Positions 1,011-50,574 of a stretch of DNA of 51,350 nucleotides are shown in pieces. The stretch comes from an uncultured Gammaproteobacteria bacterium. GTDB taxonomy: Bacteria; Pseudomonadota; Gammaproteobacteria; Arenicellales; JAANXG01. The position numbers and the translations under genes were made by a program. Position 1 is the stretch's first letter. Each line of letters starts with the position of its first letter. Where the stretch lies: NCBI GenBank assembly GCA_945787105.1, contig CALZGZ010000225.1, forward strand, positions 1 to 51,350. Reading direction: 5' to 3'. The notes under the pieces were generated by a model that was not told the origin of the DNA, did not search any database, and worked only from the letters and a program-made list of their open reading frames with translations.

Positions 1011-1043
1011 AATAAAAAAACCCAGCAGGTGCTGTGCTGGGGT
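1011..1043 (-). terminator. Rho-independent terminator of the CHAT cassette
   Basis: The minus strand reads CCCAGCA-CAGCACC-TGCTGGG followed by TTTTTTTATT, immediately after the stop codon at 1044-1046. Confidence 0.8.
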
Positions 1044-1517
1044 TCACCCGGCCAGTCCCGCCACTTTCGTAACCGGCTCCATGATGGCCTTGACGGCCTC
1101 GGTATCTACCTTGCCCTTGTGGATCTTGATCTTGCCCAGATCAATCTCGATATTCGAAGAAACCATAAACAAGGTCAAATTAACCATCAGGCCAACCGCA
1201 ATAATGGCGCCGACAAACAAATCGTCATCATTCTTCACCTGCGCCCACGCAACTTCAATCATCGATGCCATATCGGGATCGCTGGATAAAGCCTCGAGAA
1301 ACCGGCGAGAAAGCATAACGGAAGTTTCCGTATCTATTTTCTGATCGAGCTGATCGTCAGTAAGCGCCAGTAACGGCTGACCCAAACCACTCGCAGCGGC
1401 ACTGTTTTCGATATCGGCATAATCGACTGCGCTGAAAATCCGGTTGTGGATGTTTTCGGCCATCGCCACGGCCTGGGTGTCATCGAGGTTGTGAACAATT
1501 TCGTGCGCGGTAGCCAT
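1044..1517 (-). CDS. Small CHAT-protease partner protein (157 aa) with a hydrophobic C-terminal helix
   Basis: AAGGA RBS; starts 20 bp after the CHAT gene stop. Acidic helical N-half, then LFVGAIIAVGLMVNLTLFMVS and a beta-hairpin-like IEIDLGKIKIHK. Confidence 0.8.
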   Translation of the reverse strand: MATAHEIVHNLDDTQAVAMAENIHNRIFSAVDYADIENSAAASGLGQPLLALTDDQLDQKIDTETSVMLSRRFLEALSSDPDMASMIEVAWAQVKNDDDLFVGAIIAVGLMVNLTLFMVSSNIEIDLGKIKIHKGKVDTEAVKAIMEPVTKVAGLAG

Positions 1518-1537
1518 TCGAATTTCCTTGTAAATTA

Positions 1538-3925
1538 TTAACGCCAGTCACCCGAAAGGCTGAAGGCGGAGCATTGATGTATAGTTTCAAAACCCGAACT
1601 GCCTTGCAATTCTTTGACGGTACTTTGAAAGGCAACGGCCCTGGATTGATTCTTTCCCAACCAGTTGTGATAGAAACGTTCGAAGAAACCTGAGGCTAGT
1701 TTAGCGCTGATATACCAGTGGCTAGACAAAATACTGCTGGCGCCGGCATTGACCAACGCCCAGTCAAGGCCCAGTGCATCCCTTCCCAATCCTTCACGCG
1801 ACAAACCGCTGACACAAGCCATCATCGACACGTGACTGTCATGAAGATCGATGTCGCTATCAACCAGCTTTTGCGGTGTAAGCACCATGCCGAGATCACC
1901 GTGGGCAATGGCATTTCGATCGGGTAACCTGTTACCATCACTCAGCACCAGGCCCGATCCGGTGAAGGGATTACTGTCACCAATTTGAAAAACACCATGG
2001 CTGGAAAAATGCAATATCGCTTCGGGAAGATTGTAATCACTGAGGGTTACCAGGCTGGCCTGCCTGTCTTTCAGAACCTGAACATCGAAATATTCCGCGA
2101 GCACCTCGGCGGGACGATTTAGGTTTTTCTCGGTTTCAGCCCAATTCTCCTTTTCAGTGTCCTGAATGGTTGGCACAACAAAGACTTCGGCGTGATTAGG
2201 GTTGGACGGATCTTTTTCCAGTATATATTCGAGTTGTGCCACGTTATGAATTCGCGAGAACGAGAAGCTATCAATCAATAATCCATTCGCCAACGGAAGG
2301 TAGTGAAGGGGTAAGTTATTCAACTGTTCATCCGCGGTGTAACAGATATGATCTCCGGCCTGCAACGGTCCCTGGTGCAACAGATCATCGATCAGGCTTA
2401 CCAGCGGCGCCAGTACTTCAGGCGCATTTGGAATCTTGCGCCCACGATTCCCGGGCTGGCCCCACCGATCGGGATCGAGGTTCGCCAGCGCACTATTTAA
2501 CAGGCTTTCATCAAGCCTGGCGGGCTCGGTACTGTAGGCCTGTCCGTCTTTACACATCATCACCATGTAAATGGTGGCCTCGCCTTCGTATCGGTCGAGA
2601 TAAAAACTTAGGTAATTGAAATGGTGTTTCTGTGTGAGCGCGGGTAGTTTTGAAACCGCGCCGTAGACATCCGCATCGGGAACCGGACGGTTTTGCTTGC
2701 GAGTCAAAATATCCGCAATACCCCGGCCCTTCGATGCCTCCATCGCCTGCAGCAGCTCGAAATAACGCCCTGCCTTGAACAATCGCTCGCACATCACGTT
2801 GAACAATTGTGAATAGGTTGAAAACGCTCCGGCGCGCTCGGTCGGATTCAAAATACCCGCGCGTTGTGACTCAAGATGAGTACGCAATTCTATCAACGCG
2901 TCGGCCGCTTCCGAACTATGATCGAGGCGACTATGACACAGGTATATTCCCCAAAGCGCATCTTGCAGGAGCTCCTTGCTATTATTCTCCTTTGACCAGT
3001 TGTAAACCTTCATCAGGTCCACAAGGCTTGATTCTATCTGGCTGACAGATGGTTGGCTGAGTGCGCTTGGATGGAAAATCGAACTGGCCTCCCTGGATTT
3101 CTCTTGCATGGTCAGCTCGGTTATCGACGATCCACCCCTGGTTAACACGCCTTCACCGGTTTTGATAATTTCCAGCATCTTTTTATATTGATCGATATCA
3201 TTCGGATTTAGCGACGGGTTCCCGGCTTCATCGGCCAACAGAGTCTGCAATTTATTAAATTCTTCCTGGTGATCACCCAGAACCGATGTGTCGGTATTAC
3301 CAAGCGCATTGGCTAACGATTGTCGCAGCGAAACGGCACTGTCCGTGGATTCGATTTCGGTGACATCCCCCATGAGTTCATATATCCGGTTGAGCAATCG
3401 GTCCTTGCCAACCTGGGAACCCGGACTCCGAAAACAATCGAGATTTTCGAGCGACTCCCGGCTTTCATCGATTCGGTTCAGGTTAAACAGGGCTGTCGCC
3501 CTGGCCAGAACCAACGATGGATAGTTTTCCATTTCATCCAGAGCCGAATATATCGGCAGGTAAACATCCGCGGCCACCAGCACTTCCTGTGAACGTCCCA
3601 GGAGGTTAAGGGCATTCAAATGCTGACTCGCGAGGTTGCTCAGTGTCGTCGAAAACAATCCACCGTGATCAGCCAGACTATTATAGATTTCAGAGCCCAG
3701 CTTATGGGTTGCCTCGGCCAGACTTGCACCATATTCCGGGTTGCTGCCAACACAATACTCCATAACCATGCTGGTTATGCCCAGCACCAAGGTCGCCGGG
3801 TTCTGCCCAGCCGCCATTGCGAGCGCAGCGCTCTTGAAACTATTTTGCGGCGCGCCCTCAATCAGGTCATTAATTCGCCCGGGCGAGCCAGAACTCAAAA
3901 TTAAATATATTTCCTGCGAATTCAT
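1538..3925 (-). CDS. TPR-like helical repeat + CHAT (caspase-like, clan CD) protease, 795 aa
   Basis: Catalytic dyad motifs ILHFSSHG and VSMMACVSG. Also LNNLPLHYL, AGASSILSSHWYI, C-terminal SAFSLSGDW and MEASKGR, all typical of CHAT proteins. Confidence 0.9.
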   Translation of the reverse strand: MNSQEIYLILSSGSPGRINDLIEGAPQNSFKSAALAMAAGQNPATLVLGITSMVMEYCVGSNPEYGASLAEATHKLGSEIYNSLADHGGLFSTTLSNLASQHLNALNLLGRSQEVLVAADVYLPIYSALDEMENYPSLVLARATALFNLNRIDESRESLENLDCFRSPGSQVGKDRLLNRIYELMGDVTEIESTDSAVSLRQSLANALGNTDTSVLGDHQEEFNKLQTLLADEAGNPSLNPNDIDQYKKMLEIIKTGEGVLTRGGSSITELTMQEKSREASSIFHPSALSQPSVSQIESSLVDLMKVYNWSKENNSKELLQDALWGIYLCHSRLDHSSEAADALIELRTHLESQRAGILNPTERAGAFSTYSQLFNVMCERLFKAGRYFELLQAMEASKGRGIADILTRKQNRPVPDADVYGAVSKLPALTQKHHFNYLSFYLDRYEGEATIYMVMMCKDGQAYSTEPARLDESLLNSALANLDPDRWGQPGNRGRKIPNAPEVLAPLVSLIDDLLHQGPLQAGDHICYTADEQLNNLPLHYLPLANGLLIDSFSFSRIHNVAQLEYILEKDPSNPNHAEVFVVPTIQDTEKENWAETEKNLNRPAEVLAEYFDVQVLKDRQASLVTLSDYNLPEAILHFSSHGVFQIGDSNPFTGSGLVLSDGNRLPDRNAIAHGDLGMVLTPQKLVDSDIDLHDSHVSMMACVSGLSREGLGRDALGLDWALVNAGASSILSSHWYISAKLASGFFERFYHNWLGKNQSRAVAFQSTVKELQGSSGFETIHQCSAFSLSGDWR

Positions 3926-4009
3926 CCCTTAATCTCTTTCGATCGCCAGCAATCGGTTTAGCTAAAAAATTCCCATTGCCCCGAGTTGTACATTCTGATC
4001 GCGGCAGGT

Positions 4010-4351
4010 TTACCAGCCGCTTACATCGATGCCAGCCGAGGACGTCTGGCTTAGCATGCCGCTTCTGAACGTGTCCTGCCGGTCCTGAGACAGGCGATCA
4101 AACTGGCCCATCTGATTTTGTGCCTGGATATATTGCGTAAACATCTGCTGCTGAACCTCGGGTGGAATGTTTTTGCCATAGGTTTGCTGCATGTTGGCAA
4201 GGTTCGCGGAATAGCTGCTCATCATGCTGTTTAACTGATGCTGGTAGCCCTGCGCGGCCTTGTACCCGAAGTAGATAACCCCGATCCAGAACAAAAGGGG
4301 GCCAAGCACCCCCAGTACGATGACGATGGTAAAAATGGTTTCAAATTCCAT
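4010..4351 (-). CDS. Membrane-anchored Q/N/M/S-rich small protein (113 aa)
   Basis: Strong SD (AAGGAGGGAGG). N-terminal hydrophobic segment of about 25 aa, then a Gln-rich low-complexity tail. First gene of the minus-strand cassette. Confidence 0.8.
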   Translation of the reverse strand: MEFETIFTIVIVLGVLGPLLFWIGVIYFGYKAAQGYQHQLNSMMSSYSANLANMQQTYGKNIPPEVQQQMFTQYIQAQNQMGQFDRLSQDRQDTFRSGMLSQTSSAGIDVSGW

Positions 4352-5409
4352 AACCTCCCTCCTTGTATATGGTTTAAGCTAATTGATCTCGCTGCGCACC
4401 ATTTCCGTGACTTAGAATTCCTGTCCCGGCACGTAAATCCATGTTACTCCTATGACAAATTCAGTCAAACAAATGTATGATCTTACCCACGAATAGTAGA
4501 TACAGTTAATTGCTCGTGAGTAAGAACTGTTTTACATAAGACGTATGATATTTACATCTTGGGACTGTAGTGTATTCGATGGCGGACAATTATTACCCGA
4601 TATAAATAGTGGGTTGATATTCAATAAAGTCGGGCGTAAAAGGCATATATTAAGGGCTGTACTTGCACTTAAATTAAGTGTAATGCTCGACAACAACTTT
4701 TTGTATTTTTACTTCGTAACATGTAGATAGTCAGGCAGCAGCATAACAGACTCATCTACATACCTTTGCATATAGATGTGCTTGTAAAGTTCAGGCAGAA
4801 CAAAAGGGGAGGGAGTATGCATCATACGATTTCCGGTTCACCAATCATTATTTCGAATATTCTCTTCATATCAGCGATCCCGCTCACGCGTGTTGTTTTG
4901 CGTGACAATAGGGTTAACAACCGTGTCGGGTGCTACCTGCTAACTTTATTCAAAGCTGATTATTCATGACGTAATTTATCTTCCCTTTAAAGACTTGAGA
5001 CGGGAGGCATACAAGTCTATGTACTAATGACGAATGAGGGAAGGGTCAATAGGTTGAAAGAAGAAAAAAGTTAATATTATGAGGAGGGTCTGCGATGCGA
5101 ACATACCAAAATTTTTTCCAGTCATCAGGTTTGAACTAACCGACTGTATCAAGTTTTGGGTTAACCAACGACCCGTTGAAGACGTTTTGTTTTCACACTG
5201 ATCCTAAATATTTAAGGAAGATTTCGGGGTGATCGGGGTGATAAAATGGGCGAAACGAGTTTCAGTGGCGATGGATGTTTTGGGAAGGGCATTTATACTT
5301 CCTATATGCGTTGAAGCGGCGGATTAAAAAACATACTCCCTGCACCAAGAAGTACCAAGGCTACACACAATCAGCTGGACGACGTAATAATAATATTGGG
5401 GGCGGTGTT

Positions 5410-5535
5410 ATGGACTGGAACAATATTTTTGGACGCGGATTTTCTTTCAAACATTCAATTCTGATTTTAATGCTGGCATCGCTTAGTGCCTGCGGTAATG
5501 ATGATAACGCTGATATTCCCACCAGTAAGCATTGA
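5410..5535 (+). CDS. Putative very small lipoprotein (41-aa precursor)
   Basis: ATG at 5410 after a G-rich SD. MDWNNIFGRGFSFKHSILILMLASLSAC has a basic/hydrophobic signal with lipobox LSA-C, leaving a 14-aa mature peptide. Confidence 0.45.
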   Translation: MDWNNIFGRGFSFKHSILILMLASLSACGNDDNADIPTSKH

Positions 5536-5565
5536 AGCAATTAATTTGATGTAAGGATCGATACT

Positions 5566-6228
5566 ATGAGCAAGATGCAAAATATAATTCGGATTATTGT
5601 TACGATAGAAACCAAGATTTATCGGGACGGAATCACTCAACTACTAGATAACTATAGTGATATTGAGGTGGTTTCATCCACTTCATGTATTCAGGAAGCC
5701 GTCGAATTTTGCCGTACTGAATCGCCCCATATTCTGCTCTTGGATGCATCGTTGCCTGAAGCCCTGCCCACAGTGCGTACGCTGAAGGGTGAAACTCCGG
5801 AAATAAAAATTATTTTGCTGTCGATGAAAGCCTGCCGCGAGCAGATGATGAAGTTCGCCGACAAGGGAGTGCATGAATTTGTCGCTCGTGATGACTCGCT
5901 TGAAGATCTCAGACAATCGATTACGGCCGCCATGATGAACGGTTTCTGGTGTTCATCACGAGTGGCGCAGCTATTACTGGAGCAAAGTTCGCCTGGTCCG
6001 CAGGTCAGTGAACCGATTGCGGACTCAAGTCTTACCAGGCAACAGGTCAACGTGTTACAACTCCTGGAATCAGGAATCTCGAATAAGGAAATCGCACGCA
6101 AGTTGCATATCGAAACTGCAACCGTGAAAAATCATGTGCATCATATTCTGCAAAAGCTGCAGGTCCATACACGTGGGGAGGCTGCCGCCGTTTACCGCAG
6201 ACACTACCATGACGTCACACCGGTCTAG
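5566..6228 (+). CDS. NarL/FixJ-type response regulator (REC + LuxR HTH), atypical receiver
   Basis: PHILLLD phospho-Asp motif and C-terminal LTRQQVNVLQLLESGISNKEIARKLHIETATVKNHVHHILQKL LuxR HTH; AAGGA RBS. Confidence 0.92.
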   Translation: MSKMQNIIRIIVTIETKIYRDGITQLLDNYSDIEVVSSTSCIQEAVEFCRTESPHILLLDASLPEALPTVRTLKGETPEIKIILLSMKACREQMMKFADKGVHEFVARDDSLEDLRQSITAAMMNGFWCSSRVAQLLLEQSSPGPQVSEPIADSSLTRQQVNVLQLLESGISNKEIARKLHIETATVKNHVHHILQKLQVHTRGEAAAVYRRHYHDVTPV

Positions 6229-7228: not shown

Positions 7229-7843
7229 ATGGCTGATTATCGCTCTCTTATGGCGGTTAGCGAAGCAATGGTTAAATTGCTCCAATCCAATTACAGGCCG
7301 GAGGACTTTAACAACGAGCTCGAATTCAAGGTATTCACCTCCAAAGACTTTTCAGAAAACACGATAGCGAACGGTGTTTCTATCTTCCCATACAGAGTCT
7401 ATGTCAATGGGGCAAATCGCTATCCATCCGGGGGTGTAGATATAAATGGAAGGAAAATAAAGAACAAATTGCCGGTCGAGGTTCATTGCCTGGTGACGGT
7501 ATGGGGGTTAAACGCGTCGCTGCAAAATACGCTTGTCGGTTGGGTAATGCGAGTGTTCGAGGATAATCCTGTCTTGCCGGCAAACTTGTTGAATTCGGTC
7601 GTCGCCAACGTGTTCTCTCAGGAAGAAACGGTCGAAATTACTTTTGCGGAATTATCGACTGAAGATATGTTTCGTATCTGGGATGTGCTGGGATTGAACG
7701 TATACCAGCTTTCAGTTCCTTATCTGTTACGGATCATAAACATTGATTCCATTCAACCTCCACTAACGGAAGCAGGTGACCCTGTTCAGATTCGTGATTA
7801 CACATTTGAACAGGAAGTCGTTCCAGGTGAGACGGTGTATTGA
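7229..7843 (+). CDS. eCIS cap/terminator protein, DUF4255 (Afp16/Pvc16-like)
   Basis: MADYRSLMAVSEAMVKLL, VSIFPYRVYVN, LPVEVHCLVTVW, LSTEDMFRIW and YQLSVPY match the DUF4255 pattern. Confidence 0.88.
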   Translation: MADYRSLMAVSEAMVKLLQSNYRPEDFNNELEFKVFTSKDFSENTIANGVSIFPYRVYVNGANRYPSGGVDINGRKIKNKLPVEVHCLVTVWGLNASLQNTLVGWVMRVFEDNPVLPANLLNSVVANVFSQEETVEITFAELSTEDMFRIWDVLGLNVYQLSVPYLLRIINIDSIQPPLTEAGDPVQIRDYTFEQEVVPGETVY

Positions 7844-7859
7844 ATCAGGCGAAAAAATA

Positions 7860-8729
7860 ATGCATGCACATATCGAAAACTTCACCCGATTCACCCCATT
7901 AGGTATTAAATTCTGGGATCCGGTACAGGACAAAGCTATTGAGCAAGACCTGGAAGTAACAGCCTGGCCTGCCAACAATCCGGGATCAAAGGTGCATGCC
8001 TTCAAGACTTACAGTGGCGCCTTTAGTTTCAGGAACCTGCCGGGTTTAATCGACCTGGAGTTGTCTGGTGGCACCGGAATCGAAGACTCTCCACCTGAAT
8101 TACGTCAGTATATTGTCTCGGTTTCGGACCGACAGAATCGATATCTCGACGTTAGCTTCTCGGTATCCCTACCTCTGCCATATAAGGGATTATTTTTAGC
8201 CCAGCAACCCAGCAGCCCGGTTTCGGAAACGCCCAAAGGATTTTATCTCTATTCCTCCATCACCAGGCATGTTTCCTGGCAGTACGCCGAAATTCGTGGA
8301 GAGTTGACCGACGTCACCACCGGTGAGGTCGCCTCTCACGCTCTGGTCAGAGCGTTAACGGATGACAATGAAACCTGGTTCGGTATCAGTGATTCGCAGG
8401 GGCGCTTTCTGTTGGTTCTTCCGTATCCGGGACTACCAGACGGCTTTGGCGGCTCGCCCATTGTGGGTCAAGTGCCTTTACATCTTCAAAGCTGGATCGT
8501 TGAGCTGGCAGTGGGTTACCAACCCGATGCTCTAATCGGTTTAAAAGGTACTGATATCCCCAGTTACGTTACGATACTCAGCCAGAAAAGCGCCAGTATT
8601 TTTTCAACTAATCCAGATGTATCCGGCAGTGCCGCTTCGTCACTGCCTTTAACCATTAATTTCAATCAAGCTACGATTGCCAGGACTGACGGCTTTTCGA
8701 GTTTGTATATCAACCCGTCAGCAGCTTAA
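7860..8729 (+). CDS. eCIS-associated beta-rich protein (carboxypeptidase-regulatory-like domains), possible cap adaptor
   Basis: Likely start is ATG 7860 after the cap gene. It contains EIRGEL...GISDSQGRFLLVLPYP (beta-sandwich pattern) and sits between cap and sheath. Confidence 0.6.
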   Translation: MHAHIENFTRFTPLGIKFWDPVQDKAIEQDLEVTAWPANNPGSKVHAFKTYSGAFSFRNLPGLIDLELSGGTGIEDSPPELRQYIVSVSDRQNRYLDVSFSVSLPLPYKGLFLAQQPSSPVSETPKGFYLYSSITRHVSWQYAEIRGELTDVTTGEVASHALVRALTDDNETWFGISDSQGRFLLVLPYPGLPDGFGGSPIVGQVPLHLQSWIVELAVGYQPDALIGLKGTDIPSYVTILSQKSASIFSTNPDVSGSAASSLPLTINFNQATIARTDGFSSLYINPSAA

Positions 8730-8748
8730 TACCCAAGGGAGACCTATC

Positions 8749-10650
8749 ATGCCAGAATATCTTGCCCCAGGTGTTTTCGTAGAAGAGACCAGCTTCAGGC
8801 AAAAAACGATCGAAGGTGCCAGCACGAGTACCACTGGCTTCGTCGGTCCATGCCGTTTCGGTCCGATCAGAGGTGAACCTGAATTGCTCACGGGTTTTGC
8901 CGATTTTGAGCGGATCTATGGCGGCATCGATCAGCTGGTTTTCGACGGTATCTCGGACCCAACTCACAATTATCTAGCACAAGCCGTTCGCGCATACTTC
9001 GAAGAAGGAGGACGACGCCTGTACGTTGCGCGAATTTACAATGCACCAACGTCCGGAGACGGAATTGCACGCTGGATCTCCGCCGGTTCGCCAGCAAGTT
9101 ATACGCTCGAAGCCCGCCATCCCGGAGAAGCCGGCGAATTTACCGTTAGCTTCGTTTTCAAGCTCGGCGATAACGTTTTGAAAAATGATTCTGACGATAC
9201 GGCATCTATTCCGAATCCGGCCAATAACGTGCTGCGCGGAGTGCGTGAATTCGATGTGGTGCTCGCTGGAAACCTTGCCTCCCCGGCCGGGGACGATGAA
9301 GCCCTGTACTGGATGCAAAACTATTTCGATAGCGATGCAAACGAGATCCGGCAGCGCCTGGTGGCGTCAGATAATAGCAATGTTGCGCTTTCTACAATTA
9401 GCCAGGCGAGAGTGCTGACTGTCTCGGTGATAGTTGGCCCACTGGGAAGATTCGGCTTTGAACAGAGTTGGGAGAACCTGTCGATTCATCCCGAGCACAG
9501 GAATTCGTTGAGTAATGTATTCAACAGCTCGCCTGCTGACCGTAGCGCTGAACTGTATATACCGCTGGTTTACAACACGGATCTGACAAATGGTGCTGCG
9601 CTGGCCGATGCGATGCTGGCAAATAATAGCATTGCCGGTGGCGTGACATCACCGGTAGCGACGGTTGCAGACGCGCTCACGCTGCTTGATCCCGAGCCGC
9701 TCGAAGCGGCCAGGTCATTTCGTGTAGCCCTCGATAATGGAAGCGATGGAGATCAGCCTGTAATCAGCGACTATACCGGGAGGGAAGGAACTGTGGATGG
9801 AATAAAGTCCGGGCTGCGCAGTTTCGAGGACGTAGAAGATATCTCCATCGTTGCCGCTCCTGGCTCGAGTTTCGATTATTCGGATCTCCGCGGCTCCGAT
9901 TATGCGGAAGCGATTGCCCGGCGTGTCATCAGTCATTGCGAGAAGATGCGTTACCGTATCGCAGTGCTCGATTCGATTAATGGCGACATTCTAAGCCAGG
10001 TCAGGGACTATCGCAGTATCTTCGACAGTACCCGGGCATCGCTCTACTATCCCTGGATCAAGACCTTCGATCCCCTGACCGAGCAGTTTATTCATGTCCC
10101 TCCCAGTGGTTCCATTTGCGGGGTTTACGCACGTAACGATGTAGAGCGTGGGGTTCACAAGGCGCCGGCAAACGAACCTTTGCGCATGGCCGCAGGGCTT
10201 GAATTTGTTTTGAACACCGCCGAGCAGGAAACACTCAATCCAAGAGGAATCAACTGCCTCAGGTTTTTCGAGGGCCGCGGAATACGTATCTGGGGTGCCA
10301 GAACTGCAACCAGTGATCCGGAATGGAAGTACGTTAACGTTCGTCGATATTTTGCATTCCTGGAACGTTCTATCGAAGTGAGTACGCAGTGGGCTGTGTT
10401 TGAAAATAATGGTCCTGTCCTGTGGGAGAACGTCATGCGCACCATCGAAGATTTTCTTTACAACGAGTGGCAACAAAATCACTTGCTTGGCGCCACGCCG
10501 GAGCAGGCATTTTTCGTGCGTTGTGACCGCAGCACCATGACACAAAACGACCTGGACAACGGTCGTCTGGTTTGTGTTATCGGCGTAGCACCATTGCGAC
10601 CGGCGGAATTTGTAATCTTCCGCATCGGCCAGAAGACGGCTGACAGTTAA
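8749..10650 (+). CDS. Contractile tail sheath protein 1 (Afp2/3/4-like)
   Basis: True start is MPEYLAPGVFVEE (AAGGGAG SD). Motifs YYPW, RGVHKAPAN, LNPRGINCLR, IWGART, YVNVRR, WAVFENN and APLRPAEFVIFRI. Confidence 0.97.
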   Translation: MPEYLAPGVFVEETSFRQKTIEGASTSTTGFVGPCRFGPIRGEPELLTGFADFERIYGGIDQLVFDGISDPTHNYLAQAVRAYFEEGGRRLYVARIYNAPTSGDGIARWISAGSPASYTLEARHPGEAGEFTVSFVFKLGDNVLKNDSDDTASIPNPANNVLRGVREFDVVLAGNLASPAGDDEALYWMQNYFDSDANEIRQRLVASDNSNVALSTISQARVLTVSVIVGPLGRFGFEQSWENLSIHPEHRNSLSNVFNSSPADRSAELYIPLVYNTDLTNGAALADAMLANNSIAGGVTSPVATVADALTLLDPEPLEAARSFRVALDNGSDGDQPVISDYTGREGTVDGIKSGLRSFEDVEDISIVAAPGSSFDYSDLRGSDYAEAIARRVISHCEKMRYRIAVLDSINGDILSQVRDYRSIFDSTRASLYYPWIKTFDPLTEQFIHVPPSGSICGVYARNDVERGVHKAPANEPLRMAAGLEFVLNTAEQETLNPRGINCLRFFEGRGIRIWGARTATSDPEWKYVNVRRYFAFLERSIEVSTQWAVFENNGPVLWENVMRTIEDFLYNEWQQNHLLGATPEQAFFVRCDRSTMTQNDLDNGRLVCVIGVAPLRPAEFVIFRIGQKTADS

Positions 10651-10707
10651 TCCCGAAAATGACTGTTCAATATATGAATCGATACGCATCAAACAGGAGC
10701 TAGCACT

Positions 10708-11169
10708 ATGGCGACACAGAGGGAAAGACCCTATTCGCAGTTCAACTTTGAAGTTAGTTGGCCTGGCGCAAACGACACAACGACGACCGCGGGCTTCCAG
10801 GAAGTCAGTGGATTGGGAATGGAAGTGACCGTAGCCGAGTACCGCACCGGTAACGACAAGGAAAATGAGCCCATCAAGATTTCAGGCATGTCGAAAACAC
10901 CGGACATCACCTTAAAGCGTGGGGTGCTTGGTAGCGCTGATCTTTACAGCTGGTTGGACTCGGTACGTAAGGGTAAACAGGACCAATTAAAAAACGTCAC
11001 TATCAAACTCATGAGCGAAGATCGAGAGCAGACTGCGCCCGCGCAGGAATGGAAGCTCAAAAATGCCCGCCCAATCAAGTACACGGGACCTTCGTTAAAT
11101 GCAAAAGGTACCGACCTGGCCATAGAGGAGCTTGTGTTGGCGGCTGAAAAAATGACGATGCTCACCTGA
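10708..11169 (+). CDS. Tail tube protein 1 (T4 gp19-like, Afp1-like)
   Basis: FNFEV, GFQEVSGL, EYRTG, ITLKRG, W-L-NA-P-KYTGP-LNA and AIEEL motifs; AGGAG SD. Confidence 0.95.
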   Translation: MATQRERPYSQFNFEVSWPGANDTTTTAGFQEVSGLGMEVTVAEYRTGNDKENEPIKISGMSKTPDITLKRGVLGSADLYSWLDSVRKGKQDQLKNVTIKLMSEDREQTAPAQEWKLKNARPIKYTGPSLNAKGTDLAIEELVLAAEKMTMLT

Positions 11170-11191
11170 CCGCGAGTATAGAGGCAGACCC

Positions 11192-14100
11192 ATGACCCTC
11201 GGAGCAAGCGCACAAGTCCCCGGTGTATATTTTTCGGCGGTAATTCCACGACCTGCCGATGATCTGCCGCGTATGGATGTAGCTGCCTTTGTTGGTTTTG
11301 CGGAAAGCGGACCTCTGAACCTTCCGGTCAGTGTGGGTTCGGTGGCTGAATTCAGGAATGTATTTGGCAATGATATTGATCTGGCCTGGGACAACGAATA
11401 TAATCGTTTTCAGCAATCCCTGTTGGGCGCCACGGTTGAAGCGTTTTTCAGTAATGGTGGAGAGCGTTGTGTTGTAGTTCGGGTTGCCGGTCGAGACAGT
11501 CAGAGCCCATTTGTTCTGACGAGCCGTGATTTCCCCCTCGATAGTCTGTATCAGGTTGACTCGGGCGTCGTCCAGGCCTGTCAACTCCCAGCTCGATCTC
11601 CTGGTAGCTGGAGTGACGATTTAAGAGTCGGTACCCAGCTGAATACCCGCGTCCTGCCGCTGGACCGAAGCGGTATCGCGAGCTCAGGGCTGCGTTACCT
11701 GTTTGAAAAAAAGGATAACAGTTACCGTGTGCGTGTACTCGCGCTGCCCGCATCCATTCGCCGCCACGATCTTGTGCGCCTGCATTTCGATGAGCTTCAG
11801 CTGGATGTTTATCTATTCGTATCCGAAACGGGCCAGGATGAACAGGGCTTATGGCTCGGTGCCAGCGAGACGTTCTGGTTTGAGGCAGACTCTTTGGGAG
11901 TCTTGTTATCAACGGTATCAGAGAATGAAGGCTACAGTCGCGTGGAAAGCCTGTTTGCTGGTACTACTGAATCAGGCATTACCCTGGCGCATCTCTCCAT
12001 CAATCTGCTGGTCTGGCAAAATGGCGCATTGGTTGGGCGTGTACAGGAACTGGCGTTGCACGGTGAACATTCGCGTTGCTGGCAACATCTGCCCGCGGAT
12101 GATTTGCTCTATGGCGACCTGCAGCATTTGTCCCCGGTGGACCGGGACGCCGATTTAGCCCAATTGTTTGGTGAGTCCAGTGAGCCACGTTTTCATCTTG
12201 GTGCGAGTTTCCCGAGTCTGGCGGCCATGCAAGTGCGTACCGGAACGCTGCGAACAGTGCCGCTGGGGATGTCGGCATTGGCAGATTTCTCTCAGGCCCG
12301 GCCACCCTCGCCACTTGTTGGCCCGGTTGCAATACCGGATTCGTTGCGCAATGGGCTGCAACAATTTAGCGCCGATCTGTTCATCGATCCGGATTTTCAG
12401 GATACACGTTCCGATCGTCTGGCTGCGGAAATAGAGTACAAGCATGTTCGCCGTAATGAACTGTTACGTAACGAAAGCCTGCTTGATGAAGACGGCTCAG
12501 CCCATCTCGATGCGCTCGCGCGGCTACTCGCCAAAGGAGTACACAGCCTTTATTTCGATCCGCATGTCAGCATGATCGCAGTTCCCGATGCATTACATCG
12601 CCCGTGGAGTAACGATGTGCCGGAATTCCCCCATGTTCTGGAAGCTCCGATTATTAACAGCCTGGAATACGATCCCGAGCGCAACATCATCGAAATTCTG
12701 TGGAACGCGGTTGCTGGAGCGGTGAGCTATGAACTTCATCACAGCATCGATCCCGGCAGTCCGCAAGCCGTGCCGCATAGCATTGCCGCTACGGATCGTC
12801 TGTTGCTGGAAGAGTCCGACTCCTTTGTCATGACGGAAGGGTTGATGTTTAGCGTCGAGGTAGCAGAAGGCTGTAGCAAACTTCACAGTTTTCGAATCTT
12901 CGCGAACGGTTATAGACAACGCAGCCCCTGGTCCGCGACCGTAATGCTGCACACTCCGGCGAAAGAATTTTATGACTTTGGTAGTGCGGATCCGACAGTG
13001 CTGAATTTTATTCTGGGCACGGGTAGCGTATCGGAAACAGAAATCGAACTTATCTGGTCGGCAAGGAACCCGGAAAGCGGTGCTGCTAATCTGGTCGATG
13101 CCTATGAACTGCAACGGGCTAGTGACCTGGGATTTTTTGGTGCTCAAAGCATTTTGATTGCGGCCTCGAGTAGTCTTACCCATGATGAACTTCTGGTGAG
13201 TGATGTTCCGGTCTACTACCGCATCCGTGGCATAGAGAATAGCGTACCCGGTCCCTGGTCGAATACAGTTACGGTACTTCCCCGCCAGCTCAGCAAACTG
13301 GTGCTCCAGTCTCCGGACGAGCCGGCGGTGACTGATCTGCTCGCGGTTCACTGTGCCTGCCTGCGACTCTGTGCAGTACGCAACGACGCAATCACGCTGA
13401 TGGCACTTCCCGAACAGTCGCGAACGGCGGATGCATTACGCTGTGCTCAGCTCTTGCAAAATGGTAACACCATCAGCGAAACCCTGGCGCGAAGGTTTGG
13501 CAGTGGCGAGCTGTCGGTTCCAGCCTTGAATGCAGGCGAAATGAACGCGTTGAGTTTTGGTGCCTTGTTTCACCCGTGGATTATCAACGGCAGTGTCCAT
13601 TCCGGAGTTCCCAGGGTCGCGGATGAACCGGTTCGCCGTTTGCCCGTGCTGGGTGCCATCGGCGGAACCCTGGCCGCACAGGCAAACGCGCGAGGTGCCT
13701 GGATTTCGGCAGCGAATATCGAATTTGTCGATGTGCTTGGTAGCGCACAGGATCTGAGTTCCGCGCAGTTGGCCATGTTGTTTCAGCAGCATGTAAATGC
13801 GATCCGACGTAACCCCGTGAAATTTGCGCCGGTTGCATTGGATACCCTGAGTCGATCCGGCGAGTTTCAAATACTGAGTGTGCGCCGCCTGTTTAATCTG
13901 TTGGTGAGGCTCATTCGACGCGAAGGAGTGCAGTATGTATTCGAAAACAGCGGCATCGATTTCAGAAACCGCGTTCAGCATTACTGGGACAATTTGTTGA
14001 GCGATCTGTTTCGCAGGGGCGCCCTGCAGGGCAGGTCACCCGAACAGGCCTATCGGGTTATTACAGACGAATCAGTCAATACGCCGCAACAAACGGAACG

Positions 14101-14209
14101 GGGGCGCCTGATTGTCGAGTTGCAGCTGGCGCCTTCGCGACCCTTGCGATTCATACGCGTGTCGTTGCGTCAGAACAAGTCTGAGCAGTTAGTGCTGGAG
14201 GAATTGTAA
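11192..14209 (+). CDS. Contractile sheath protein 2, enlarged (1005 aa) with Fn3-like inserts
   Basis: Sheath termini PGVYF...DVAAFVGFAESGP and LFHPW, LSVRRL, YVFEN, GRLIVELQLAPSRP; the middle is expanded. Confidence 0.9.
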   Translation: MTLGASAQVPGVYFSAVIPRPADDLPRMDVAAFVGFAESGPLNLPVSVGSVAEFRNVFGNDIDLAWDNEYNRFQQSLLGATVEAFFSNGGERCVVVRVAGRDSQSPFVLTSRDFPLDSLYQVDSGVVQACQLPARSPGSWSDDLRVGTQLNTRVLPLDRSGIASSGLRYLFEKKDNSYRVRVLALPASIRRHDLVRLHFDELQLDVYLFVSETGQDEQGLWLGASETFWFEADSLGVLLSTVSENEGYSRVESLFAGTTESGITLAHLSINLLVWQNGALVGRVQELALHGEHSRCWQHLPADDLLYGDLQHLSPVDRDADLAQLFGESSEPRFHLGASFPSLAAMQVRTGTLRTVPLGMSALADFSQARPPSPLVGPVAIPDSLRNGLQQFSADLFIDPDFQDTRSDRLAAEIEYKHVRRNELLRNESLLDEDGSAHLDALARLLAKGVHSLYFDPHVSMIAVPDALHRPWSNDVPEFPHVLEAPIINSLEYDPERNIIEILWNAVAGAVSYELHHSIDPGSPQAVPHSIAATDRLLLEESDSFVMTEGLMFSVEVAEGCSKLHSFRIFANGYRQRSPWSATVMLHTPAKEFYDFGSADPTVLNFILGTGSVSETEIELIWSARNPESGAANLVDAYELQRASDLGFFGAQSILIAASSSLTHDELLVSDVPVYYRIRGIENSVPGPWSNTVTVLPRQLSKLVLQSPDEPAVTDLLAVHCACLRLCAVRNDAITLMALPEQSRTADALRCAQLLQNGNTISETLARRFGSGELSVPALNAGEMNALSFGALFHPWIINGSVHSGVPRVADEPVRRLPVLGAIGGTLAAQANARGAWISAANIEFVDVLGSAQDLSSAQLAMLFQQHVNAIRRNPVKFAPVALDTLSRSGEFQILSVRRLFNLLVRLIRREGVQYVFENSGIDFRNRVQHYWDNLLSDLFRRGALQGRSPEQAYRVITDESVNTPQQTERGRLIVELQLAPSRPLRFIRVSLRQNKSEQLVLEEL

Positions 14210-14685
14210 TGGAATGCCCGACGAGACCCGCGCCGTTGTTTATGACCTTTAATTTCAAGGTCAATCTTTACTTGCCTGGCGCGGAAAAAAAGTCGGAACT
14301 ATGCTGCGCGGCGTTTTCAGAGTGTTCCGGGCTGGAGATGTCACTGGAGCCGAAAACCATTCGCGAAGGCGGAAACAACGCCCAGCCTATTCATTTGCTC
14401 GGCAAGGTCGGCTATGGGCAGTTGAGCCTCAAGCGAGGCATGTCGTCCGACTTCGGTTTGTGGAACTGGTTCGATAAGGTGCAGCAGGATCGCAGGCTGC
14501 GTGCAAGTGGTGACGTCATCATGCTGGCCGTGGATGGATCCGAGAATGTGAAATTCAAACTCACCGGGTGCCTGCCAGTCAAAATCAGTGCGCCCGGACT
14601 TAACGCGATCAGTGGTGGTAATGCCATCGAGGAAATGCAAATTGTTTATGAATCGCTTAGTTATGAATTACCGAAGCAGGCCTAG
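14209..14685 (+). CDS. Tail tube protein 2 (Afp5-like)
   Basis: FNFKV, AFSECSGLE, IREGG, LSLKRG, LPVKISAPGLNA and AIEEM motifs; start overlaps the sheath-2 stop. Confidence 0.93.
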   Translation: MECPTRPAPLFMTFNFKVNLYLPGAEKKSELCCAAFSECSGLEMSLEPKTIREGGNNAQPIHLLGKVGYGQLSLKRGMSSDFGLWNWFDKVQQDRRLRASGDVIMLAVDGSENVKFKLTGCLPVKISAPGLNAISGGNAIEEMQIVYESLSYELPKQA

Positions 14686-14694
14686 GGTATAGCC

Positions 14695-15351
14695 ATGCCT
14701 AAACCGGTTAGTATTGAAAAGGCCTATTTTCAGGCAATTGAATGGAACGCTGCTGGTGTCGCCGAGCCCAAGCCCAAGGGTAACAAGTTATACGTGCAAT
14801 TCAATCCGGAGACCCTGAAAGTAAATTTCGCCAACCAGGTATCCGGCCAGGACAATAACGGCGGCTCCGCTACGCAGTACGCAAGCCGGGGCACGACCAA
14901 ACTGACTCTGGAACTGTGGTTTGATGTGAGCAATCAGCCGGGGCTCGCGAAAAAACACAGCGATGTGCGCATGTACACCAAAGACATACTGGTATTTATG
15001 AACTCGACGCCAAGCAGTGATGAAAACACCACGGAGCGGCCGCCGGCGGGCTGTCGATTTCAATGGGGAACTTTCCTGTTTGACGGCACCATGGATTCCA
15101 TCAACGAAAATCTCGAATATTTCTCCGAGGATGGCGTTCCGCTGCGCGCAAGTCTGTCGGTGAGTATTACCAAGCAGGAATTGAAAATCACCATCTCGGG
15201 CAACAATGCAGACGCCAGTGGCGTCGGGGATACAGGTACCCGTTCGATGCAACTGTCGCAGCAAAACGTCCCGGTGGGGCAACAGGTTGCTCGCAATAAC
15301 GATGTCGATAATCTGCGTAATCCGGGTGAAGGCAGGTATTTACGTCTCTGA
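14695..15351 (+). CDS. CIS tube initiator (Afp7-like) with a degenerate LysM remnant
   Basis: VQFNPETL, LTLELWFD, PP-CRFQWG and FSEDGVPLRA motifs. Confidence 0.88.
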   Translation: MPKPVSIEKAYFQAIEWNAAGVAEPKPKGNKLYVQFNPETLKVNFANQVSGQDNNGGSATQYASRGTTKLTLELWFDVSNQPGLAKKHSDVRMYTKDILVFMNSTPSSDENTTERPPAGCRFQWGTFLFDGTMDSINENLEYFSEDGVPLRASLSVSITKQELKITISGNNADASGVGDTGTRSMQLSQQNVPVGQQVARNNDVDNLRNPGEGRYLRL

Positions 15352-15421
15352 GGATAGAACGAAAAGTAATGTAGCTATTTTGCCAACAGGACAAGTTAAC
15401 TGAAAAAAGGAGGGTGACTCA

Positions 15422-15592
15422 ATGCCCGTAATCATAAACGAATTCGAGGTGGTTTCTGAAAGGCCGAAAGGGGCGCCGGATTCGGCGGCTCAAACCCAGA
15501 TGATTCCGCCGCAGCCCAACAAGCTGCCTCAGGAGCTCGATGCGGTAATGCATGAACAATATGTGCGCATGCTTCGCACCAGGTCTGACTAA
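15422..15592 (+). CDS. Small eCIS protein (56 aa), Afp6/plug-like; not in the ORF track
   Basis: Strong SD AAGGAGG. Translates MPVIINEFEVVSERPKG...HEQYVRMLRTRSD and stops 2 bp before the hub gene. The N-terminus resembles the MPVxIxE start of Afp6-like proteins. Confidence 0.75.
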   Translation: MPVIINEFEVVSERPKGAPDSAAQTQMIPPQPNKLPQELDAVMHEQYVRMLRTRSD

Positions 15593-15594
15593 CT

Positions 15595-16680
15595 ATGCCA
15601 GAACTGGCCAGCACATCGGCATTTTACGCCTCGCGTCCAACGATCACGCTGGATGGCGATGACGCCCCGGCGCTGGCGCTGGGTATATTGTCGCTTGCGG
15701 TGAACGAAACGGTCGAAGGACTCTATTGCGCGGAAATCACTTTTGGCAACTGGGGTTCGATTGGCTCGCGTGCGGACTTTCTTTATTTTGACCGCGATCT
15801 GTTGGATTTCGGCAAGGAGCTTGCCATCACCATGGGCGAAGGTGAAACGGTGCAGCAAGTCTTTCGGGGAAAAATTACCGCGATCGAAGGACGCTTTCCC
15901 GACCAGAAACCACCGGAAATCCTGGTGCTTGCAGAAGACAGCTTTCAGGATCTTCGCATGGTGCGCCGCAGTCGGGATTTTGTGTCGCTGACGATCGGCG
16001 ACGTAATCGAGAGCGTTGCCGGTTATTACAACCTGACAACCGACGTCGATATCGACTCGACCCAGTTTGCCTTATTGACACAGGTTAACCAGAGCGACCT
16101 GGCATTTCTGCGTGAATGCGCACGCCTCGTGGACGCGGAGCTGTGGGTAGAGGACAACAAAATCATGGCCCGTTCCCGCAGTGCGCGTCGGCACAGTGAA
16201 ATTACTTTTACCTACGGGCAGCGATTATTTGAATTCTCCGTGATGGCCGACTTGGCACGTCAACGCACCGCGCTCGAAGTCTGTGGATGGGATGTGGCGG
16301 CAAAAGCCGCGATTGCCGAAAAAGCGGACAGCAATGCCATTCAGGGCGAGTTGGACAACGGCGAAAGCGGTGCCGGGATTTTACAACAGACATTCGGTGA
16401 GCGCGTCGAGCGCGTCGTTCATCAGGTACCGTTCAGTAACTCAGAAGCCATGACAATGGCGCAAAGTGGATTCCGCCAGATCGCGCGCCAGTTTCTCACC
16501 GGCCAGGCAATTCTCGAGGGAGACGGTCGCGTAAGGGTAGGATCTCAGCTGCGTTTTGAAGGCATAGGGTCCCTATTTACAGGGGAATATTACGTTAATC
16601 GTGTGCGTAACAGCTTTGATGCGATGGATGGATTCCGCACCTGTGTGCATGTCGAAAAACCTGGATTGGGGAGAGCATAA
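15595..16680 (+). CDS. Baseplate hub, phage late control D/gp27-like (Afp8 N-half)
   Basis: VFRGKITAIEGRFP, LAED, Q-NQSDLAFL, V-GWD and FTGEYYV motifs. Confidence 0.9.
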   Translation: MPELASTSAFYASRPTITLDGDDAPALALGILSLAVNETVEGLYCAEITFGNWGSIGSRADFLYFDRDLLDFGKELAITMGEGETVQQVFRGKITAIEGRFPDQKPPEILVLAEDSFQDLRMVRRSRDFVSLTIGDVIESVAGYYNLTTDVDIDSTQFALLTQVNQSDLAFLRECARLVDAELWVEDNKIMARSRSARRHSEITFTYGQRLFEFSVMADLARQRTALEVCGWDVAAKAAIAEKADSNAIQGELDNGESGAGILQQTFGERVERVVHQVPFSNSEAMTMAQSGFRQIARQFLTGQAILEGDGRVRVGSQLRFEGIGSLFTGEYYVNRVRNSFDAMDGFRTCVHVEKPGLGRA

Positions 16681-17397
16681 ATGTATGACGTTGCGAGCCA
16701 GTTAGACCAGCTCAATCCGCGGGCCGCGAAAGGCCTCGGTGGCCGTTTCTACGGGGTTTATTGCGCAACGGTTACCGACATTAAAGATCCGGACGGGCAG
16801 GGCCGGGTGCAAATTCAACTGCCTTGGTCGCCAGATAACGAAGGCAGCCTGTACAAGGTATGGGCGCGGCTCGCAACATTCATGGCGGGAAACAATCGAG
16901 GCAGCTGGTTTATCCCGGAAGTCGATGACGAAGTGCTGGTCAGTTTCGAAGCAGGTGATACCCGGCGACCATACGTCATCGGCAGCCTGTGGAATGGCAG
17001 CGACGCCGCGCCGGAATCGATGGATGGAGGCGGACAAAATAATATTCGCAGCATCCGTTCGCGCAATGGCGTGGTGATCAGTATCGACGACAGCAGTGGA
17101 CAGGAAAGCCTGACGCTAAAAACACCGGGCGGCCAGGAAGTGATTCTGAAAGATGGGCCGGGATCGATCGATATTCACGACAGCAACGGCAACTCGGTCA
17201 AGCTCGAAGCGAGCGGCGTCACCGTCAACGCTTCCGCCAATGTGACCGTGAATGGAAGCATGGTGAAAATCTCGGCGGGAATGGTAACCGTCGATGCGGG
17301 AATGTCCCGCTTCAGCGGGGTCGTGCAGGCGGATACGGTGATTACCAACAGCGTTATCAGCGCCTCCTACACGCCGGGAGCGGGAAACATATGGTAA
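16681..17397 (+). CDS. Spike / baseplate assembly protein V (gp5 OB fold + beta-helix; Afp8 C-half)
   Basis: YGVY-A-VTD-KDP-GQGRV, WAR and FIPEVDDEVLVSFEAGD-RRPYVIGSLW motifs; C-terminal VTV repeats ending YTPGAGNIW. Confidence 0.92.
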   Translation: MYDVASQLDQLNPRAAKGLGGRFYGVYCATVTDIKDPDGQGRVQIQLPWSPDNEGSLYKVWARLATFMAGNNRGSWFIPEVDDEVLVSFEAGDTRRPYVIGSLWNGSDAAPESMDGGGQNNIRSIRSRNGVVISIDDSSGQESLTLKTPGGQEVILKDGPGSIDIHDSNGNSVKLEASGVTVNASANVTVNGSMVKISAGMVTVDAGMSRFSGVVQADTVITNSVISASYTPGAGNIW

Positions 17398-19505: not shown

Positions 19506-19897
19506 TTGATGCCGGTAATATATTTGGTCGCAGCATGGCATTTCCGCCACGCCTCGATACCGAACAGCGCGTCGCCTGGTCCAGCGCCTCGGACAACATC
19601 AGGGAATCCATTCAGATTATTTTGAGCACCGAACCCGGCGAGCGGTTAATGCTTCCGACCTTCGGCGCCGGGCTGAAACGATTTTTATTCGAACCAAACA
19701 CCGTATCCACCCACCGATTGATCGAGGAGAGTATCGCGCAGGCATTACAGCGTTGGGAACCGCGCATTCAATTGAGTGGCGTAAACATTGTGATCGACGA
19801 GGGAGACCCGACGGCATGCTGGGTATTCATTCGTTATTCACTGGTGGTCAATCAGCAGCAGGATCAGATGCAGTTGCGTGTGCAACTGGGCGAATGA
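19502..19897 (+). CDS. gp25/GPW baseplate protein (Afp9-like)
   Basis: IRESIQIILSTEPGERLMLPTFGAGL-FLFEPN and WEPRI motifs. Confidence 0.95.
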   Translation: MIDAGNIFGRSMAFPPRLDTEQRVAWSSASDNIRESIQIILSTEPGERLMLPTFGAGLKRFLFEPNTVSTHRLIEESIAQALQRWEPRIQLSGVNIVIDEGDPTACWVFIRYSLVVNQQQDQMQLRVQLGE

Positions 19898-19911
19898 CAG
19901 GAGAAGCGTAA

Positions 19912-22203: not shown

Positions 22204-22206
22204 CAC

Positions 22207-25329: not shown

Positions 25330-25345
25330 ACTATCGGCTTAACGA

Positions 25346-29613: not shown

Positions 29614-29678
29614 TAGTGCTAATGCGGAATTCAATCAGTATTTTTAAATAAACAAGTGGCAAATCGGGGACAGTTATC

Positions 29679-31952: not shown

Positions 31953-31979
31953 GTATGTATTGATTGAACAAGGAGGGTA

Positions 31980-34100: not shown

Positions 34101-34114
34101 AGAGATGATGGTTT

Positions 34115-36247: not shown

Positions 36248-36252
36248 GCGTC

Positions 36253-40266: not shown

Positions 40267-40271
40267 TTTGC

Positions 40272-49843: not shown

Positions 49844-50183
49844 GGAATCTCTGATTTATTAATCATTTCGTTCATAATACAATTTATCGAATCACACGTG
49901 CTAGAGGATAATGGAATACGCCAAAAGACCCTTGCCGATGAAGGCTTCGAACGTTTTCGCAAACCCACTCGTCGAGATCAGTTTCTCGCTGAAATGGAAG
50001 CCGTAATCGCCTGGTCAGAGCTGTGCAACGTCATCAAGCCATTTTATCCCCAATCCAAAGGGGCTGGTCGTCCGCCGGTCGGGCTAGAACGGATGCTGCG
50101 CATTCATTTTTTACAACATTGGTTTAACCTCTCCGACCCTGCGGCTGAAGAAGCGCTGTATGACTCACGCGCCATGCGCCGCA
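49844..50183 (+). pseudogene. Truncated IS5-family element (left end plus transposase N-terminus)
   Basis: Begins right after CTAG. Encodes RKPTRRDQFLAEME...GRPPVGLERMLRIHFLQHWFNLSDPAAEEALYDSRAMRR. The expected start codon appears as ATA and the DDE domain is absent. Confidence 0.8.
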
Positions 50184-50258
50184 GTAGAAAACTGTTGGGG
50201 CGCCCTATGCTTGACTTAAGCACCATGGATAGATGCTCGCACACAGGGAGAGAAGCAC

Positions 50259-50498: not shown

Positions 50499-50574
50499 CT
50501 CTCATCGGGAGCACTATATACAATTTACGAAATAATTGGGGAATGCTAGCGGCATGCCATAGTGCACAGGGACA

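Follow-up and report, generated by a model that had tools for sequence, protein, structure and literature searches.

A CHAT protease and its conserved small partner as the candidate core of a protease-gated cell-death or defence module in an uncultured gammaproteobacterium

What does a bacterial caspase-like protease act upon when it is encoded between two small genes that belong to no Pfam family, and could such an arrangement be a cell-death or defence module? The question is raised by three genes at positions 1044 to 4351 of a 51,350-nucleotide (nt) contig from an uncultured gammaproteobacterium (CALZGZ010000225.1; "the window" below means this whole stretch of DNA). An earlier reading of the sequence, here the original prediction, had described them as a minus-strand TPR-CHAT protease operon encoding an undescribed sensor-protease-effector system. 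We confirmed that the three-gene minus-strand operon, designated A-B-C, is real, and found that what is conserved across phyla is not the trio but protease B together with its downstream partner C. With a probability that we place a little short of even, this pair is the core of a protease-gated cell-death or defence module in which C would be a cleavage-activated membrane effector. The operon comprises the following features:

4351..4010, minus strand: gene A, an open reading frame (ORF) of 113 amino acids (aa) with an N-terminal transmembrane (TM) helix, a Gln-rich helical tail and a C-terminal motif
3925..1538, minus strand: gene B, an ORF of 795 aa, a CHAT protease
1517..1044, minus strand: gene C, an ORF of 157 aa, the conserved partner of B
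4468..4441, minus strand: promoter-like site TTGACT-16-TAACAT (sigma-70-like) about 90 nt upstream of A, from a consensus scan
1041..1021, minus strand: intrinsic-terminator-like GC hairpin followed by the T-run TTTTTTTATT, 3 nt past the C stop codon

The intergenic gaps measure 84 nt (A-B) and 20 nt (B-C), and purine-rich ribosome-binding sites precede every start codon (AGGAGGGAGG for A, AAGGG for B and AAGGAAA for C), which together with the hairpin bears out the operon and terminator as first described. Within the 4.9-kb region we counted 7 promoter-like sites against a shuffle mean of 7.0 and 9 terminator-like sites against 5.1 in shuffles; the scan totals are read as no higher than in shuffled sequence, so that only the positions of these sites are informative. 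By blastn, similarity to the related locus L007 is confined to window positions 1058-4374, and since it stops at the cassette borders the A-B-C trio represents a discrete, transferable unit.

Protease B and its conserved partner C

Gene B encodes two domains:

3925..2624, minus strand: B residues 1-434, N-terminal helical-repeat (TPR-like) domain, from the AlphaFold2 (AF2) model and Foldseek
2617..1538, minus strand: B residues 437-795, CHAT (caspase-like) protease domain, from Pfam PF12770 and the fold

The Pfam CHAT model (PF12770) matched B residues 515-792 with an E-value of 8e-24 and 85 bits against a cut-off of 24, and it was matched by 20/20 B homologues. A database search with B recovered 42 further members, mostly full length, 36-67% identical and nearly all of about 795 aa; 20 of the 43 family members, a number that includes the window's own protein, were aligned. 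The motifs SHG and MAC, proposed earlier as an intact dyad, correspond to His643 (codon 1997-1999) and Cys704 (codon 1814-1816) and are invariant across the 20 aligned sequences, upholding that proposal. Judged by the conservation of this dyad, B is predicted to be a catalytically intact CHAT protease.

The AF2 model of B (predicted local distance difference test, pLDDT, 84.1) is all helical from residue 3 to 434 and alpha/beta from 437 to 795. Its top Foldseek match was the type III-E TPR-CHAT protein Csx29 (E 8.5e-13 to 1e-9, TM-score on the target at most 0.54); next came separase, the anti-sigma factor DdvA and SAVED-CHAT, with the TPR protein LGN also among the matches of the N-terminal domain. 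The helical fold and these best matches agree with the 'TPR' label of the original prediction, whereas Pfam TPR models gave no hit above noise on the B homologues apart from one weak TPR_19 match in 1/20. 'TPR-CHAT' therefore fits B as an architecture and not as a family membership. A profile of the 20 B sequences matched no PDB chain at E<=0.01, a PADLOC-DB v2.0.0 scan of A, B and C returned 0 families at E<=0.01, and an NCBIfam scan of the three returned no family.

A profile built from 20 of 31 C hits recovered 297 cluster representatives at E<=0.001 among 1.84 billion, almost all of them stand-alone proteins of about 160 aa. We scanned 12 C-family proteins for fusions (9 of at least 189 aa and 3 of ordinary length) and found the effector-associated domain (EAD) EAD11 in three (P0105, P0161 and P0182), EAD1 in one (P0150) and CHAT in two; among the loci themselves, L017 and L022 encode a fusion of C to CHAT and L032 one of C to EAD11. 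These fusions suggest that C behaves as an effector module. Pfam assigned 20 C members to no family at E<=1, EACC1 (PF19953) included.

The AF2 model of C (pLDDT 84.9, predicted TM-score 0.82) consists of a helical domain (residues 4-95), a loop (96-106), a helix (108-119), a beta-hairpin (123-134) and a C-terminal helix. A hydrophobic helix with a Kyte-Doolittle value of 2.38 at about residues 101-121, 12 residues long by DSSP and about 20 by hydropathy, is packed inside the globular fold of the model. The original prediction had called both genes flanking the protease membrane-type: this stands for A, whose TM helix is strong (Kyte-Doolittle 2.55 over 19 residues, about residues 5-30), whereas for C the model suggests that such a character is only latent. 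Searches for a PDB fold match to the C model found none, the best Foldseek E being 0.42 and the best VIA-align wide Z 3.8, which does not make the fold new. Pfam gave no family for A or C, and Csx30 PDB structures were absent among the matches listed for the C model, in line with the earlier statement that the neighbours look neither like gasdermin nor like Csx30. Across 130 C sequences the strongly kept residues are D13, R71, L74, A78, G109 and K134, with G109 kept in 120 of them and surrounded by a helix rich in A, S, T and G, while position 96 is mostly D, N or E and position 98 mostly D or E. Both acidic positions fall within one segment:

1200..1232, minus strand: C residues 96-106 (NDDDLFVGAII), acidic loop of the AF2 model within the predicted interface with B, proposed as a cleavage or pseudosubstrate segment

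To follow the pair we made ORF sets of 69 loci (L001-L069) and searched them with iterated profiles; the duplicates L048, L058 and L060 were dropped, and L054, near-identical to L027, is still counted. C lies directly downstream of B at 25 of the 40 testable de-duplicated loci, testable meaning that the 3′ end of B is complete and followed by no less than 450 nt, or at 26 with L026, whose C was missed by the distance rule. The synteny search proposed earlier thus finds that C co-occurs with B homologues, and it does so in Pseudomonadota, Bacteroidota, Cyanobacteriota, Acidobacteriota, Nitrospirota and other phyla. In a quick maximum-likelihood tree of 33 B sequences, with L027, L041 and L054 (no single ORF) and partial B loci left out, C is present on the deepest branches and lost in two clades. 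Identity matrices of B and C from 15 loci correlate with r 0.906, a value reached in 0/2000 permutations of a Mantel test; this correlation is co-inheritance, which linkage alone would give too. The trio as a conserved unit holds for B-C and fails for A, which lies upstream of B in only 7 of 41 testable loci, with a DUF1232-like protein or nothing there elsewhere. Where C is missing its place can be taken by other genes: in one C-less clade B is followed by a conserved protein of about 131 aa with 2-3 TM helices (D), after which comes a second CHAT protein of 1006-1023 aa, and in L013 a TIR protein follows B.

Modelling of the protease with C, also proposed earlier, returned a confident predicted complex, with interface scores (ipSAE) of 0.73, 0.75 and 0.75 against 0.00 for the best of 3 controls. 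In an approximate calibration, for which own alignments were used, that ipSAE mark was reached by 58/80 solved complexes and 2/110 mismatched pairs. The runs have at least 95% of contacts in common and the partner pLDDT is at least 82. Interface residues are 490-496, 586-601, 642-645, 668-676, 702-705 and 738-744 on B, and 12-14, 24-29, 54-64, 95-105 and 107-113 on C, so that the catalytic dyad of B (642-645 and 702-705) and the acidic loop of C (95-105) both fall inside the predicted interface. The complex model supports B-C binding without showing it, and it points to the residues with which a mechanism could be approached, namely Cys704 of B and residues 96-100 of C.

Proposed mechanism, precedents and a pseudosubstrate alternative

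In the mechanism we propose, cytoplasmic B, built of helical repeats and CHAT as in Csx29 and separase, would hold C in a latent complex, the N-terminal helical domain and hydrophobic helix of C packing against B and its acidic loop 95-105 lying in the His643/Cys704 cleft. On a trigger B would cut C in or near loop 95-105 and so free a C-terminal fragment of about 55 residues (Gly-centred hydrophobic helix, beta-hairpin and helix), which would insert into or assemble in the inner membrane, with the cell killed or arrested. A would act as a membrane-anchored accessory with a putatively cytoplasmic tail, serving as a tether, a co-sensor or a second substrate. By analogy with published systems we infer cleavage of C, action on the membrane, cell death and a role in defence, cleavage with release of a membrane-active fragment being the most likely course. 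The protease-partner logic of the original prediction finds support in the B-C synteny, the co-divergence, the C fusions and the predicted complex, while no sensor, the first element of that logic, was identified.

The precedent for such a mechanism is EACC1, for which, as for the other published systems below, we draw on parts of the cited sources. The EACC1-caspase pair is System 4 of Kaur et al. 2020 (PMC7159879), with its mechanism described by Evans et al. 2025 (bioRxiv 10.1101/2025.11.14.688446): a caspase-like protease cuts its small partner EACC1 at a position that modelling places in the active cleft, and the C-terminal fragment of EACC1 is toxic and permeabilises liposomes. As the same preprint already presents protease-gated small pore-forming partners (EACC1, Pepco and gasdermin), the word 'undescribed' in the original prediction is to be toned down; B-C is an unnamed variant within a published kind of bacterial suicide or defence module. 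Like EACC1, C is a small non-enzymatic partner beside a caspase-superfamily protease, has one conserved hydrophobic helix centred on a Gly and flanked by alpha+beta elements (PMC7159879), has a loop modelled in the protease cleft and a proposed membrane-active C-terminal fragment, and is occasionally fused to EADs, EAD1 and EAD2 in the published EACC1 cases and EAD1 and EAD11 in C. C is unmatched by PF19953 (0/20 members at E<=1), is larger (157 aa against about 115 aa, calculated from the reported 5.7 and 7.1 kDa fragments), carries a helical N-domain of 95 residues and is encoded 3′ of its protease, whereas the EACC1 gene lies 5′; the CHAT domain of B is C-terminal behind a TPR-like domain, whereas the EACC1 caspase is N-terminal with variable C-terminal sensors. 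A search for PF19953 in 301, 251 and 201 genomes, one of these sets (phylum of G469) being from the window's own phylum, gave no match above the cut-off, and none was found in G000. By this analogy we take B-C to work like EACC1-caspase without being a member of it.

Other protease systems resemble the cassette in part. In Craspase, Csx29, the best structural match of B, likewise combines a helical-repeat domain with CHAT and cuts a small neighbour, Csx30, releasing a toxic part; however, the window ORFs scanned include no Cas7-11/gRAMP, no Csx30/31 and no other Cas family, B has no sequence-level match to any PDB chain, Csx29 included, and crRNA-guided RNA binding by an adjacent effector is excluded as its trigger. 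Membership of type III-E Craspase was rejected for want of Cas genes and of sequence relatedness to solved Csx29. Bacterial gasdermins share the proposed logic of a caspase-like or CHAT protease that removes an inhibitory part and so sets free a neighbour able to permeabilise membranes, but A and C have no gasdermin Pfam match and both are far smaller. Gasdermin was also absent among the fold matches listed for C (best Foldseek E 0.42, best VIA Z 3.8), and membership, judged on the Pfam result for A and C together with this fold search, which covered C only, appears unlikely. Type IV Thoeris (10.1101/2024.10.24.620036) likewise employs a caspase-like protease in abortive infection, and in L013 a TIR gene occupies the place of C; its protease however has an N-terminal caspase and a C-terminal ligand-binding domain and cleaves indiscriminately. 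Membership was rejected, neither the cassette nor the window having a TIR gene and B showing the opposite domain order.

The EACC1 precedent, and the small multi-TM or TIR protein that substitutes where C is missing, count for the effector reading. The genes around related loci are only suggestive of a defence role. We scanned the flanks with PADLOC at E 1e-8, covering 120 of 177 candidate ORFs from 42 loci (the rest had been scanned earlier, overlapped or were dropped), and found defence-type neighbours at 7 of the 42 loci, a count given without a background rate:

L038 (close relative): Pycsar cyclase + TIR
L031: AbiEi/AbiEii
L021: phospholipase effector
L059: methyltransferase
L030: mad2
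L018: PDC-M45B
L067: QatA-like ATPase

Two further flank hits were generic (a sigma-54 activator and an ankyrin protein), and in L012 Pfam identified an OLD-type TOPRIM protein in the flank.

Several points weigh against a cleavage-activated effector with a role in defence. At 35/42 related loci no PADLOC neighbour was found at E 1e-8, and neither B nor C itself matches PADLOC. C is absent at 14/40 testable loci, which means that other partners can serve B as well. Neither a sensor nor a trigger is apparent for B-C, and A finds no definite place in the model. The complex output lists interface residues, among which the C residue opposite Cys704 is not specified, and a loop modelled in the active site would fit a pseudosubstrate inhibitor equally well. 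Membrane insertion by the short hydrophobic helix, buried in the model, is conjectural, and the recurrence of the cassette beside an extracellular contractile injection system (eCIS), described below, suggests that in this genome the cassette does something other than ward off phage.

The first alternative is that C is a securin-like pseudosubstrate inhibitor or a chaperone, whose loop would keep B off until loss of C frees it. The freed protease would then cut cellular or phage proteins in the manner of an executioner, as in type IV Thoeris or PCaspase. Securin inhibits separase as a pseudosubstrate, and separase, a helical-repeat protein with a caspase-like fold, is also among the fold matches of B; a segment of a small partner is likewise predicted in the active site of B. 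The broad interface, about 100 contacts that include the C N-domain, would suit a stable regulatory subunit, and caspase-like defence proteases that lack an effector are reported (10.1101/2025.11.14.688446; 10.1101/2024.10.24.620036). Yet separase and securin form a system of the eukaryotic cell cycle and resemble neither B nor C in sequence, and securin is an inhibitor and not a membrane effector. The fusions of C to EAD1 and EAD11 follow a pattern reported for effector and signalling modules (PMC8195603), its conserved Gly-centred hydrophobic helix and hairpin have no obvious role in an inhibitor, and the proteins found in its place, small multi-TM and TIR, are effector-like. We consider an inhibitor or chaperone role for C unlikely.

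As an activated effector, C would belong to the protease-gated death effectors, which are increasingly recognised as a main logic in bacterial immunity and parallel caspase-gasdermin signalling. To this the cassette adds a free-standing protease of Csx29/separase architecture that would work without CRISPR, and an unnamed partner family (the 297 cluster representatives above) with no known fold and a concrete candidate cleavage loop.

An adjoining eCIS locus and its possible relation to the cassette

Upstream of the cassette, on the opposite strand, the window contains an eCIS locus that the original prediction had missed:

5566..6228, plus strand: LuxR-type response regulator (REC + GerE by Pfam), divergent, between the cassette and the eCIS
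7229..45593, plus strand: complete eCIS locus, Pvc16_N plus structural genes, by Pfam

The eCIS families found are sheath, gp19 tubes, CIS_tube, Phage_base_V, gp25, Baseplate_J, an AAA ATPase and two eCIS_core proteins. An eCIS recurs beside a distant B homologue: tblastn of the other window proteins against all loci gave matches only in L042 and L041/L048, and the window, L042 (1-4607) and L041/L048 (L048 1-4606) have a common layout of sheath, Pvc16, LuxR and, divergently, a partner gene and B. Identities between the window and these two are about 40% for B, 32% for LuxR, 43% for Pvc16 and 44-57% for the sheath.

This recurring position raises a separate and more surprising possibility, the control of particle release. 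The cassette could serve the eCIS through a protease-triggered membrane lesion that lyses or checkpoints the producer and so releases particles, possibly under a shared LuxR-type regulator. The common divergent layout would fit such a role, as would the report in a review that eCIS are set free when the producer lyses suicidally (PMC10598620) and the finding of no lysis gene among window ORFs of at least 120 aa, the size range covered for holins. Pvc16_N occurs somewhere in 14/30 B-bearing genomes, above several base rates (20/400 in the window's phylum, 3/40 and 5/40 in two families, 13/40 in a cyanobacterial order), and an interim Fisher test of 10/20 against 20/400 gave p 8e-8, a test that ignores taxonomy and genome size, with both of which this genome-level excess is confounded. 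The closest relatives of the cassette (L007, L037 and L038, 65-66% identity) argue otherwise, having no eCIS gene within 6 kb, and the end of DNA similarity at the cassette borders points the same way. Where checkable, B and Pvc16 lie on separate contigs, and on the L021 chromosome they are about 400-500 kb apart as read from the coordinates; B was found in 0/20 eCIS-bearing genomes of the phylum sample. The distant eCIS-adjacent lineage, moreover, carries U-B-D-CHAT2 (U being the DUF1232-like protein) and not A-B-C. On balance we hold a service to the eCIS to be quite improbable, and its full form, in which the cassette would be the eCIS's own suicide switch, lysing a subset of producers and co-regulated via the LuxR-type regulator, very doubtful. 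If true, it would be the first protease-gated, holin-independent mechanism of eCIS release and would tie caspase-like regulated death to the altruistic release of a weapon. A literature search found no paper linking CHAT proteases to eCIS, the terms 'contractile injection', 'caspase-like' and 'cell death' together returning a meeting report only.

A non-lethal role in regulated proteolysis or signalling, like those of DdvA, a CHAT anti-sigma factor, or of HetF-type developmental proteases and with A and C as membrane-associated signal transducers or substrates, is very unlikely: the transmembrane CHAT protein DdvA (PMC11506125) is among the structural matches of B, A would provide a membrane anchor and a response regulator gene adjoins the cassette, but neither a sigma nor an anti-sigma gene is found next to B, whether in the window or in the scanned flanks, the regulator travels with the eCIS and not with B, and a patchy cross-phylum spread together with rarity (0/400) fits mobile conflict genes better.

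The eCIS locus ends in two proteins of 1337 and 1773 aa (36253-45593), each with an eCIS_core domain (PF13699) and with no Pfam family at E<=1e-5 in the remainder; both are probably payloads or effectors. Within the locus, positions 29679-31952 encode a 757-aa protein ending in an OMP_b-brl domain (E 1e-12), which is unusual for an eCIS. Past the eCIS (49898-51276) lie a fragment of a DUF772 transposase and, on the minus strand, a RES-domain protein, RES domains being the toxins of RES-Xre pairs, and left of the cassette (3-716) is a fragment weakly like an STY4528-type island replication protein (E 0.0096, short of the cut-off). These three together point to a putative mobile island.

Gene A, exchangeable parts and distribution

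Gene A is a lineage-specific accessory. We found 11 homologues of 113-118 aa with 58-100% identity, and A itself carries a Gln-rich helical tail and a conserved C-terminal motif, AGID..SW; Pfam, NCBIfam and PADLOC hold no family for it. The 7 loci with A upstream of B are close relatives and two minor groups, and the whole trio, where testable on both sides, was found in the window, L007, L037 and the L027 group. U, of about 210 aa, is adjacent upstream of B in 15/41 testable loci and somewhere in the locus in 22/41, while neither A nor U is present in 15/41. A DUF1232 motif (PF06803) was found in U of L023 with E 2e-8 and more weakly in L011 and L048. In the closest relatives, L007, L037 and L038, U is divergent and upstream of A, and in L006 it takes the place of A; a search for U in the window and the whole genome found none. 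The region that corresponds to the position of U in the closest relatives, 4352-5565, is 1.2 kb of AT-rich sequence (GC 0.38-0.42 against about 0.50 nearby) with no ORF above 90 aa and no U remnant detected. That A might be a truncated U was rejected, hhalign probabilities for A-U, A-C and C-U being at most 1%; by these comparisons A, U and C appear mutually unrelated. No paper with both 'CHAT domain' and 'DUF1232' was found in the literature.

A second, larger CHAT protein occurs in many related loci, including L011 (7823-10804), L017 (6621-8846), L022 (8222-10498) and L042 (9064-12135), and its N-terminus is a U domain in L011 and a C domain in L017 and L022. Small partners fused in cis to a protease hint at protease cascades. 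Together the swapped optional parts (A, U, the 3-TM protein, TIR and the second CHAT) show how such modules get rebuilt.

The B family is rare. No full-length B match was found in 40 relatives or in 400 other genomes of the window's phylum, and B loci numbered 31 in a genome collection of 185,579 species, with 33 metagenome loci. Against plasmids, tblastn of B recovered just one relative, 25% identical and from Rhizobium, and tblastn of C gave no match; the gene that overlaps this B homologue downstream nevertheless matches the C profile with E 7.7e-6. The plasmid is conjugative (L072, NZ_CP016290.1 12575-26089), its B- and C-like genes stand amid PLD-like, S1/P1 and NucA-type nuclease genes, and these surroundings look like a conflict island. 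Among sequencing runs with the cassette genome no RNA run was listed, and two DNA runs carried it at small shares of 0.05-0.06.

A phylum sample around L035, a locus titled Mycobacterium sp. KBS0706, gave the same hits as a sample of the window's own phylum, so the genus name seems misplaced. The B homologue of L019 (G345 contig C6, 124469-126810) is broken over three frames and is probably a pseudogene, and a papain-like (Peptidase_C1) gene lies convergent to B in both L019 and L014.

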